The translations under genes were made by a program, and so were the position numbers. Shown here piece by piece: positions 14,961-16,319 of a DNA stretch of 24,000 nucleotides. Where the stretch lies: positions 806,306-830,305 of the forward strand of contig CAWHBS010000003.1 in the NCBI GenBank assembly GCA_963827625.1, written 5' to 3'. This stretch comes from an uncultured bacterium. Lineage in GTDB: Bacteria > Chloroflexota > Chloroflexia > Chloroflexales > Kallotenuaceae. The notes beneath the pieces were generated by a model that saw nothing but the letters and a program-made list of their open reading frames with translations, was not told the DNA's origin and searched no databases. Numbering within the stretch: the first letter of the stretch is position 1; every line of letters starts with the position of its first letter.

Positions 14961-16319
14961 ATGCACCAGGTCTTCCTGACGGTCGATCTCGGGTTTGGCG
15001 ACGCGGGGAAGGGCTCGATCGTCGATTTTCTCACCCGTGAACACGCGGCACATACGGTCGTGCGCTACAACGGTGGCGCGCAGGCCGGGCATCGCGTGGT
15101 GATCGGCGATCCTCTGCCGCGGGAGCACGTCTTCGCCCAGTTTGGCAGCGGCACACTCGCGGGCGCGGCGACCCACCTGAGCCGGTTCATGCTGGTGGAC
15201 CCGCTGGCGATGGTCGAGGAAGCGAAGCATCTCCGTGCGCTGGGCGTCGAGGCCTTTGAGCGCACAACCGTCGACGAGCGAGCGCTGGTGATCACCCCCT
15301 TTCAGCGCGCGATCAACCGGCTGAAGGAGCTTGCGAGGGGCGACCGCCGGCATGGGAGCTGTGGCATGGGTATCGGCGAGACGATGGCCGATTACCTGGC
15401 GCACGGTGAGCAGGTGCTCTTTGTTGGGGACTTCCGGCGCCCCGACGTGCTGCGGCGCAAGCTCGCGTTCCTTCGCGAGGTGAGCCTGGCCAAGACACGC
15501 AAGCTGCGTCTGCCCGACGGCGAAGCCGCGACACGCGAGCGGGAGCCGCTGTCGTCGGACGACTGGATCGCCTGGCTCGTCGACGCCTATGCTGCCTTCG
15601 CGCGGCAGGCGCGGATCGTGCCGGACGACTATCTGCATACGATCCTCGGGCAGCCGGGGACGGTCGTCTTCGAAGGGGCGCAGGGCGTGCTCCTGGATGA
15701 GTGGTATGGCTTTCACCCGCACACGACGTGGAGCTGCACGACCCTGGACAACGCCGACCGTCTGCTGGACGAGGCAGGCTATTCGGGCGACGTGACGCGC
15801 ATCGGCATCACGCGGGCATATGCCACGCGGCATGGTGCCGGGCCGCTGGTGACGGAGGATGCACAGCTGACCCGCGCGTTGCCGGACGCGCGGAACGGCA
15901 TGAGCGACTGGCAGCAGGGCTTCCGCGCGGGTTGGCTGGACCTGGTGTTGCTGAGATATGCGCTGGAGGTCACCGGCGGAGTGGATGCGCTGGCAGTGAC
16001 CTGCCTGGATCGGGTGGCGGAGCTGCCGGAGCTGAAGGTGTGCCGCCGCTATCGCCAGGGCAACCTGCTGCTGGATCGTATCGCGCGCTCGCCGGCGCCG
16101 CGCTCGCTCGCGTATCAGGAGCAGCTGACACGTAGACTCGCGGTGTGCCGGCCCGTGCTCGAGACGGTGGCGGATGCCGAGGCGCTGCCCAATCTGCTGG
16201 CGGCCGAGCTGGGGGTGCCGGTTGAGCTGGTGTCACGTGGTCCGACCGCCGAGGACAAGAGCTACATCGCCATGGCGATTGAACTCAACGCACCTCAACC
16301 GGCTCGACCAGCACATTAG
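14961..16319 (+). CDS. Divergent adenylosuccinate synthetase (PurA) family protein
   Basis: ATG at 14961 follows AAAGGAGG. PurA motifs are GDAGKGS (P-loop with Asp, codons 13-19), GGAQAGH (codons 38-44), GMGIGE, FEGAQGVLLD, AYATRHGAGP, GWLD, CLDRV and SRGP. The GATTGRRRR aspartate loop is replaced by NGMSDWQQGFRA. Confidence 0.9.
   Translation: MHQVFLTVDLGFGDAGKGSIVDFLTREHAAHTVVRYNGGAQAGHRVVIGDPLPREHVFAQFGSGTLAGAATHLSRFMLVDPLAMVEEAKHLRALGVEAFERTTVDERALVITPFQRAINRLKELARGDRRHGSCGMGIGETMADYLAHGEQVLFVGDFRRPDVLRRKLAFLREVSLAKTRKLRLPDGEAATREREPLSSDDWIAWLVDAYAAFARQARIVPDDYLHTILGQPGTVVFEGAQGVLLDEWYGFHPHTTWSCTTLDNADRLLDEAGYSGDVTRIGITRAYATRHGAGPLVTEDAQLTRALPDARNGMSDWQQGFRAGWLDLVLLRYALEVTGGVDALAVTCLDRVAELPELKVCRRYRQGNLLLDRIARSPAPRSLAYQEQLTRRLAVCRPVLETVADAEALPNLLAAELGVPVELVSRGPTAEDKSYIAMAIELNAPQPARPAH

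Follow-up and report, generated by a model that had tools for sequence, protein, structure and literature searches.

A PurA-like protein with a rebuilt aspartate loop, encoded with a vWA protein and a J-domain kinase-like protein in bacteria and large phages

What does a member of the adenylosuccinate synthetase family do when it has kept the residues for catalysis and GTP binding while its pocket for L-aspartate has been rebuilt? This question is raised by an open reading frame (ORF) of an uncultured bacterium of the Kallotenuaceae (Chloroflexota). The ORF lies in a stretch of 24,000 nucleotides (positions 806,306 to 830,305 of contig CAWHBS010000003.1, assembly GCA_963827625.1), which is called the window here and supplies the coordinates given below. 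It occupies positions 14961-16319 of the plus strand and encodes a protein of 452 amino acids (aa), designated P. The start codon is ATG, and 6 nt lie between it and a Shine-Dalgarno sequence recognised by direct reading (AAAGGAGG, 14948-14955, plus strand). Its gene closes a conserved operon in which it follows genes for a J-domain pseudokinase (A) and a vWA protein with a MIDAS site (B); a gene for an NrtR-type regulator is often associated. A preliminary description, made from the DNA letters, had called P a PurA paralogue with a replaced aspartate loop. P belongs to a clade distinct from both PurA and PurZ and is best explained as a neofunctionalised member of the adenylosuccinate synthetase superfamily.

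The active site of P

Membership of the family was evident from the profile PF00709, which matched P with an E value of 1.3e-62 and 212.4 bits (cut-off 27), aa 10-432 aligning with profile positions 5-414 of 416. The cut-offs of the purA equivalog models NF002223 and TIGR00184 were not reached (171.1 versus 402 and 139.5 versus 395.55 bits, respectively). An AlphaFold2 (AF2) model of P (pLDDT 82.8, pTM 0.85) was compared with known structures by Foldseek. The TM scores were 0.72-0.78 (E about 1e-26) for the PurA proteins of E. coli, B. anthracis, plants and mouse, and 0.47-0.51 for PurZ/DgsS, so that P is predicted to have the PurA fold. The model has low confidence only at aa 252-259, at aa 290-322 and in the C-terminal tail (aa 438-452). 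The two internal segments are loops bearing clade-specific residues, and a low pLDDT would be as expected if these loops become ordered only on binding of a ligand or partner.

P was mapped on E. coli PurA in two ways, by HMMER alignments to PurA proteins of solved structure and by the columns of a MAFFT alignment, and the results agreed. Residue numbers in three-letter code are those of the E. coli enzyme unless stated otherwise, and the roles assigned to them are those of the structural and mutagenesis literature on this enzyme. Conservation was counted in 149 of the best 150 matches to P in a database of 1.84 billion 50%-identity representatives. These 150 matches all scored above 339 bits (E < 1e-96), canonical PurA proteins only about 120 bits. 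At E <= 1e-30 the search returned 3127 representatives.

The residues for catalysis and GTP binding (Asp13, Lys16, His41, Gln224, Asp333 and Ser414) are present in P and in 139-149 of the 149 representatives; P also retains Thr239, Gly416, Pro417 and the GWLD segment. The P-loop, equivalent to Gly12-Lys18 of E. coli, reads GDAGKGS (aa 13-19; 14997-15017, plus strand like all motifs of P) and keeps Asp13 and Lys16, found in 145 and 146 of 146 clade sequences. In GGAQAGH (aa 38-44; 15072-15092) His41 is kept (147/149) and Asn38 is replaced by Gln (145/149). Gln224 lies in FEGAQG (aa 237-242; 15669-15686) and is present in all 149 sequences. HPHTTWS (15714-15734), part of a loop with low pLDDT in the AF2 model, combines the retained Thr239 (148/149) with a change of Ser240 to Trp (127/149). 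The guanine-specificity residue Asp333 is kept in TCLD (aa 347-350; 15999-16010; 148/149) next to a replacement of Lys331 by Cys, a position held by Cys, His or Asn in the clade. SRGP (aa 425-428; 16233-16244) supplies Ser414, Gly416 and Pro417, which are conserved in 139, 149 and 123 of the 149 sequences.

All five determinants of L-aspartate binding are changed: Val273 to His, Thr301 to Trp, Arg303 to Gln and Arg305 to Phe, while Thr300 is deleted. Four of these positions lie in the rebuilt aspartate loop, NGMSDWQQGFRAGWLD (aa 312-327; 15894-15941), which is one residue shorter than that of E. coli and has in addition Gln for Gly302 and Gly for Arg304. Arg306 (Arg322 in window numbering) is kept, as it is in 148 of the 149 representatives. 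The His in place of Val273 (His291 in window numbering) is near-invariant (148/149) and belongs to TRHGAGP (aa 289-295; 15825-15845), part of the longer AYATRHGAGP. The cradle for the 5'-phosphate of IMP has four replacements, Asn38 to Gln, Thr129 to Cys, Arg131 to Met and the inter-subunit Arg143 to Glu, so that of the phosphate ligands Asn38, Thr129, Arg143' and Thr239 only the last remains. The loop concerned reads HGSCGMGIGE (aa 131-140; 15351-15380) and also shows Ile126 changed to His, Thr128 to Ser and Pro135 to Glu. Cys129 occurs in 144 of 149 representatives, and the clade-specific His126, Ser128 and Glu135 are the consensus in 87-93% of the clade sequences.

Every motif string quoted in the preliminary description was found in the translated ORF, including the altered IMP-phosphate loop SCGMGIGE. 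Its statement that the Thr-Thr pair and the Arg cluster of the aspartate loop are gone was borne out for Thr300, Thr301, Arg303, Arg304 and Arg305 but not for the clade-invariant Arg306. In both alignments the aspartate-binding residues are replaced. The changes of Asn38, Val273 and Arg143 come on top of those listed there.

The replaced positions are not variable in the clade. Among the 149 representatives, N38Q was found in 145, T129C in 144, S240W in 127, V273H in 148, T301W in 135, G302Q in 145 and R305F in 129, and D13, K16, H41, Q224, T239, R306, D311, D333 and S414 are kept. Position 131 is taken by a hydrophobic residue and position 143 by E, D or G, i.e. by a non-basic and often acidic residue. 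When the clade was set against 42 canonical sequences, about 35 positions proved to be invariant and specific to it, most of them in the active-site loops. Three signature motifs, GSCGxG, TRHGxGP and N-x(3-4)-W-Q-x-x-F-R-x-G, are all present in P. They recur in the loci from genomes and phages alike, a few of which lack one motif or two. The same aspartate-loop motif was found in the homologues of phage Bxz1, a Rhizobium phage and a Vibrio phage. Judged from these sequences, the substitutions reflect a changed specificity under purifying selection and not decay, since new residues of equal conservation occupy the replaced positions. The reading of P as a decaying pseudogene was rejected, the replacement residues being near-invariant over the 149 representatives.

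A neighbour-joining tree was calculated from 51 sequences comprising P, three phage homologues, 30 clade representatives, the canonical PurA proteins of E. coli and Chloroflexota, and PurZ of phage phiVC8 as outgroup. The PurA-like clade was monophyletic in 99 of 100 bootstrap replicates and the canonical PurA set in 95. P thus takes its place in the PurA/PurZ phylogeny, which the preliminary description had proposed to determine, inside a clade separate from both. Clade members were on average 41% identical to one another, 27% to canonical PurA and 22% to PurZ.

The designation of P as a paralogue was upheld by a related genome rather than by the window itself, whose 24 kb contain no second PF00709 gene. 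On a 9.7-kb contig of an Anaerolineae metagenome-assembled genome (locus L018) a canonical purA, which scores 381 bits with E. coli PurA and has the motifs GDEGKG, GTTKRGIGP and GATTGRPRRCGWFD, accompanies a PurA-like gene scoring 600 bits with P and 124 with E. coli PurA. This makes the PurA-like gene a true paralogue. Proteins annotated as canonical adenylosuccinate synthase are common in Chloroflexota. Given this and the two types on L018, the idea that P is merely the divergent and only PurA of its phylum was rejected. Clade members were also found in Streptomyces, Catenulispora, Gordonia and Janthinobacterium, genera that have a normal purA as well. Housekeeping PurA of Chloroflexota (e.g. 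6134-7399 of L018) has LLEGQLG in place of the FEGAQG shared by E. coli and the PurA-like clade. Its Gln stands one position earlier, and the PurA-like paralogue therefore keeps FEGAQG more faithfully. One PurA-like protein, from an uncultured Oscillochloris (L017, 6001-8097), carries a C-terminal Peptidase_S51 domain (E 4e-21; cyanophycinase/aspartyl-dipeptidase family). Being a single case, the fusion could be accidental or could hint at a link to Asp-containing peptides.

An operon shared by bacteria and large phages

B is located directly upstream of P and on the same strand in 84 of 87 loci. The distance between the two genes ranges from -25 nt (overlap) to about 470 nt and is mostly below 110 nt. 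A was found upstream of B in 57 of the 87 loci (E <= 1e-5) and an NrtR-type protein (NUDIX and NrtR_WHD domains) adjacent in 31. Apart from NrtR there was no further conserved neighbour across the loci, be it a lyase, transporter or effector, and an AAA+ gene, as expected for a MoxR-vWA pair, was absent from the module in the window and from the conserved neighbours. Natural fusions of B or A with P were not found, the longer proteins being low-complexity extensions or mis-called starts. In PADLOC, P and B had no match, and A matched nothing more specific than generic kinase domains. In the window the operon extends from A (12826-13902) through B (13948-14937) to P, all on the plus strand, with 23 nt separating B from P. 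A sigma-70-like promoter site (12765-12793, plus strand; 10 of 12 positions, consensus match only) precedes A and, together with a promoter-like site at 16323-16351, brackets the three genes.

A scan of bacterial genomes, restricted to one genome per species, yielded 80 loci in Chloroflexota, Actinomycetota, Saccharibacteria and other lineages of the candidate phyla radiation, Bacteroidota, Bdellovibrionales, Polyangiaceae, Gemmatales and Burkholderiales. The module is spread over about eight bacterial phyla. Linear megaplasmids of Rhodococcus carry the arrangement A-B-P-NrtR, as seen on pLPS8 of R. opacus (L099, 3930-8019) and pRHL1 of R. jostii RHA1 (NC_008269.1). In four loci of Herpetosiphonaceae (L001, L002, L009 and L013) a GHMP-family kinase gene is located upstream of B in place of the J-domain pseudokinase, and B ends in ...SDRI or similar. 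This may represent a functional displacement of the kinase component. Three loci (L037, L040 and L071) have two tandem copies of the vWA gene upstream of one PurA-like gene.

Phages were surveyed by tblastn against 50,697 genomes. Records of Mycobacterium/Mycolicibacterium phages contained P in 201+1 cases, B in 200+1 and A in 201+1; Rhizobium phages accounted for 10 records with both P and B, Vibrio phages for 6. All three genes occur together in about 200 mycobacteriophages of cluster C1, A being present in 202 phages. In Bxz1 they correspond to gp247 (kinase; A), gp248 (B) and gp250 ('PurA-like'; P), and the gene order is common to Bxz1, Rhizobium phage RHph_TM21B and Vibrio phage Va1. Gp250 and its approximately 200 C1 relatives (phrog_1211) belong to the same clade as P, with 41% identity over 97% of the length and with the motifs WQxxFR, GSCG and TRHG. 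The phage operon differs in having an extra gene of 90 aa (gp249) and, in some phages, an intein in the vWA gene. Eight contigs of IMG/VR contained the module, B directly preceding P in all of them. The window proteins themselves matched phrog_3043 'kinase' (A; 1.3e-49), phrog_2971, which has no function label (B; 1.5e-64), and phrog_1211 (P; 2.1e-73). In RHph_TM21B (L005, 1152-5996) B and P are situated just downstream of genes for a HAD-like hydrolase, a phosphoribosyltransferase-like protein, an NMN adenylyltransferase/Nudix protein and a HIRAN-domain protein. This neighbourhood of NAD salvage and nucleotide genes fits the bacterial link to NrtR.

B has 329 aa when intact and gave no match in Pfam, among PDB sequences or in PADLOC. 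Its AF2 model (pLDDT 80, pTM 0.83) shows a vWA/integrin I-like domain with a DxTxS...D MIDAS motif (DVTGSMG in the window) and a helical C-terminal extension. The first five and the last approximately 25 residues are disordered in the model yet conserved. In nearly all homologues, from Chloroflexota to Vibrio phages, the N-terminus follows the pattern Met-Gly-x-[S/G]-x-[W/F/Y], and most homologues end in Arg-Leu or Arg-Ile. The C-terminal R-[LIM] tail tracks A, being found in 43 of 57 loci with A and 3 of 20 without (Fisher p = 3e-6, loci counted irrespective of kinship).

The B gene of the window has lost one nucleotide and gained another 60 nt away (positions about 14162/14163 and 14222). 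The two changes compensate each other but leave an in-frame TGA at 14212-14214. They became apparent by comparison with two other loci (L003 and L001) and with a 99%-identical ENA contig (L096) that has an intact gene of 329 aa. The two indels bracket the MIDAS motif, GSMGSVPRVLQTKLGALMRVL, which is perfectly conserved in the shifted frame. For this reason the interruption is most likely an error of assembly, or else a very recent event or inactivation. Inteins favour functionally critical sites. An intein-like insertion in B was seen in Mycobacterium phage Pinkcreek (L098, 1465-3288) and in 11 of 36 C1 phages listed. The inserted sequence is in frame, comprises about 255 aa, begins with Cys and ends with ..SSN followed by Cys. 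The insertion point, between KGY and (A/C)IFIGDE, precedes the MIDAS Asp by five residues, and some records call the insert an HNH endonuclease.

A combines a J-domain with a kinase-like domain, the Pfam matches to DnaJ and Pkinase both being weak. The HPD motif is encoded at 12958-12966, and HGA takes the place of HRD at 13492-13515. According to a profile over 50 homologues the kinase-like domain keeps the beta3 Lys, the alphaC Glu and the Asp of DFG but has His for the Asn of the catalytic loop. With these two replacements A looks like a nucleotide-binding pseudokinase on a DnaK-recruiting J-domain. The association with NrtR hints at an ADP-ribose or NAD-related input.

The TerY-P triad, reported as an anti-phage system, consists of the vWA protein TerY, a Ser/Thr kinase and a PP2C phosphatase. 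It resembles the present module in joining a MIDAS vWA protein, a kinase-fold protein and one more enzyme. However, B is not hit by the TerY models of PADLOC, a PP2C phosphatase is lacking, A has a J-domain and no HRD Asp, and the third enzyme is PurA-like. Also comparable are the NrtR-regulated operons and vWA conflict systems, centred on ADP-ribosylglycohydrolases and phosphatases, that were described by Iyer et al. (Viruses 2022; PMC9503650). They share with the module a vWA component and an adjacent NrtR-type Nudix/wHTH protein (the 31 of 87 loci mentioned above and the Rhodococcus plasmids), but none has been described with a PurA-family enzyme. The association with NrtR recalls the employment of such regulators and of vWA 'peptide-binding chaperones' in predicted conflict systems (PMC9503650), which is a lead and not evidence. 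The phage gene bears the SEA-PHAGES name 'PurA-like adenylosuccinate synthetase' (PMC9476963, PMC11468179), which is no more than an annotation label, and a survey of 2026 assigned 147 of 481 phage PF00709 homologues to PurZ and the rest to 'other PurA homologs' (PMC12884076). In the literature we found no paper on the replacement of the aspartate loop, on the linkage to a vWA protein and J-domain pseudokinase, or on any function. The clade is therefore a distinct branch of a known enzyme family within an undescribed module.

The probable reaction and its alternatives

The most economical reading of the sequence of P is a GTP-dependent 6-phosphorylation with another nucleophile, another nucleotide or both, as the preliminary description had predicted. 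More specifically, we hold it to be rather probable that P is a GTP-dependent purine-6 ligase which uses a non-aspartate amine and a nucleotide with a differently recognised 5' end, and which works with B. A role other than the making of AMP is probable because the aspartate pocket is rebuilt and because P comes with a metal-binding partner protein in bacteria as well as in big phages. GTP would stay the phosphoryl donor, as Asp333 and Ser414 are kept. Since Asp13, His41, Gln224 and Thr239 are kept too, a 6-oxopurine nucleotide would be activated at O6 to give a 6-phosphoryl purine intermediate. This step is probably common to P and PurA (EC 6.3.4.4; E. coli, PDB 1ADE/1CG0 series), with which P shares the fold, the length class and the catalytic and guanine-binding residues. 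The attacking amine would not be free L-aspartate, because the two arginines that bind carboxylates have disappeared together with both threonines, and the site has acquired aromatic residues; it is probably neutral or hydrophobic. The 5' end of the nucleotide would be recognised otherwise than that of IMP. P would work in a complex with B, for which the flexible, conserved N-terminus of B and its MIDAS site are candidate contacts, and the Arg-Leu tail of B would dock on A, so linking P to A. In view of the operon, which bacteria and large lytic phages share, the likely role shifts from purine metabolism to protein-associated regulation or conflict; the module would thus serve in regulation or in virus-host conflict instead of bulk AMP synthesis.

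Several points weigh against this proposal. Retained catalytic residues are no proof of turnover, and some binding of a carboxylate could survive because Arg306 and GWLD are retained; position 303 is still Arg in 27 of the 149 representatives. The neighbourhood offers no adjacent lyase, transporter or effector that hints at how a product is used. The blank result of PADLOC for P and B leaves a defence role unsupported by known models, and in Catenulispora the module stands amid housekeeping genes. One locus (L015) has P without B, and if the break in the B gene of the window is real, P would work without B here as well.

It might be thought that P is still an adenylosuccinate synthetase, a regulated and portable booster of AMP synthesis that binds aspartate through Arg306, His273, Gln302 or residues supplied in trans by B. 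The residues bearing the chemistry and GTP specificity are all kept, and the Arg residues at positions 306 and, in part, 303 could be cited in favour of this view. So could the database label of adenylosuccinate synthetase and the nucleotide genes near the module in phages (NrdD/G in Va1, phosphoribosyltransferase and NMN adenylyltransferase in Rhizobium phages). We nevertheless regard it as unlikely. The five aspartate determinants, defined by mutagenesis of the E. coli enzyme, are replaced, two of them by bulky aromatic residues, and three ligands of the IMP phosphate including Arg143 are replaced too. Even PurZ, which uses aspartate, keeps a Thr/Lys/Arg loop. Genomes with a normal PurA retain the PurA-like gene in addition, and for a plain biosynthetic enzyme there is no rationale for a strict tie to a vWA protein and a J-domain pseudokinase. 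A non-catalytic role is a slightly less probable proposition. In this case P would be a GTP- or purine nucleotide-binding subunit that senses GTP or IMP and controls B and A, in the manner of MoxR-type NTPase-vWA pairs, which the obligate pairing with a vWA protein resembles. The degenerate kinase next door, with HGA for HRD, and the predicted disorder of the substrate loops would agree with such a sensor. Pure sensors, however, usually lose catalytic residues of the kind of Asp13, His41 and Gln224, which are needed only for purine chemistry and are invariant here, as are Cys129, His273, Trp301 and Gln302.

A special case of the favoured ligase reading is that the nucleophile belongs to a protein, either as the alpha-amino group of Gly2 of B or as another protein amine, and that a protein-linked N6-substituted adenylate results. 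An N-terminal peptide Gly is equivalent to aspartate minus both free carboxylates, which fits a site that has lost Arg303, Arg305, Thr300 and Thr301 and acquired aromatic residues. The conserved Met-Gly start of B, with residues 1-5 disordered in the model, and the strict co-occurrence of B and P point the same way. We consider it quite improbable all the same. The argument is purely inferential, and no precedent for such a modification is known to us; the N-terminus of B could equally be a docking motif, and L015 has no B. Moreover, nothing convincing was seen when about 80 pairs were examined for covariation of the N-terminus of B with the P loop. That P performs some unprecedented reaction, either this joining of purine C6 to the N-terminal Gly of B or the synthesis of an N6-substituted adenine nucleotide which is read by A to recruit DnaK, is on the whole unlikely as well. 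If true, either reaction would define a new signalling or conflict module of bacteria and large phages, switched by NrtR.

There remains PurZ (PurZ0/DgsS, succino-amino-deoxyadenylate synthase) of phages with Z genomes, which likewise branched off within the superfamily, is carried by phages and has a changed substrate specificity. It has Ser for the catalytic Asp13 and uses L-aspartate (PMC12884076). The best PHROG of P, phrog_1211, is labelled '2-aminooxy adenylosuccinate synthetase', and some RefSeq phage records have copied the label. Yet P scored 32.9 bits with the PurZ model NF038379, against a cut-off of 300. PurZ of phiVC8 has 343 aa, GSTGKG and a basic T..KK.VRR loop, whereas the clade has GD[A/E]GKG and WQxxFR (WQQGFR in P, with its 452 aa). 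Scans of the window showed no neighbours like DatZ, MazZ or DpoZ and no HD dATPase or PolA; the neighbours encode a glyoxalase, the vWA protein and the J-domain pseudokinase. On score, retention of Asp13, length, a TM score of about 0.5 and tree position (99/100 with PurZ as outgroup) a PurZ-type function in making 2-aminoadenine (Z) DNA was rejected as having practically no chance of being correct, in agreement with the preliminary description, which had set P apart from PurZ.

If the purine-6 ligase reading is correct, the range of the fold would be widened. Its two chemistries so far, those of PurA and PurZ, both use aspartate, and the third branch has thousands of members in which the phosphoryl-transfer machinery is kept while the nucleophile pocket is rebuilt and conserved. 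The name 'adenylosuccinate synthetase' would be misleading in about 200 mycobacteriophages, in Rhizobium and Vibrio phages, on Rhodococcus megaplasmids and in many Chloroflexota and Actinomycetota, and the misnamed gene inflates annotations of the purine pathway. The partnership with a vWA protein and a pseudokinase is directly testable in tractable organisms such as M. smegmatis with Bxz1-type phages or R. jostii RHA1.

Other genes of the window

Outside the operon three groups of genes deserve mention. Three consecutive genes on the plus strand at 765-5561 encode a sulfotransferase (PF00685), a protein of 510 aa that matches ATP-grasp faintly, and a fusion of an MFS transporter with a cyclic nucleotide-binding domain, and possibly form a small modification and export cluster. 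An ABC1/UbiB-type atypical kinase is encoded on the minus strand at 6430-8616; its N-terminal region is weakly similar to a phage holin with four transmembrane segments (PF04020). Finally, an ORF of 1500 aa on the minus strand (18609-23111), with a third-position GC bias of 0.87 and weak matches to FG-GAP and GbpA_2, probably encodes a large secreted or surface protein.

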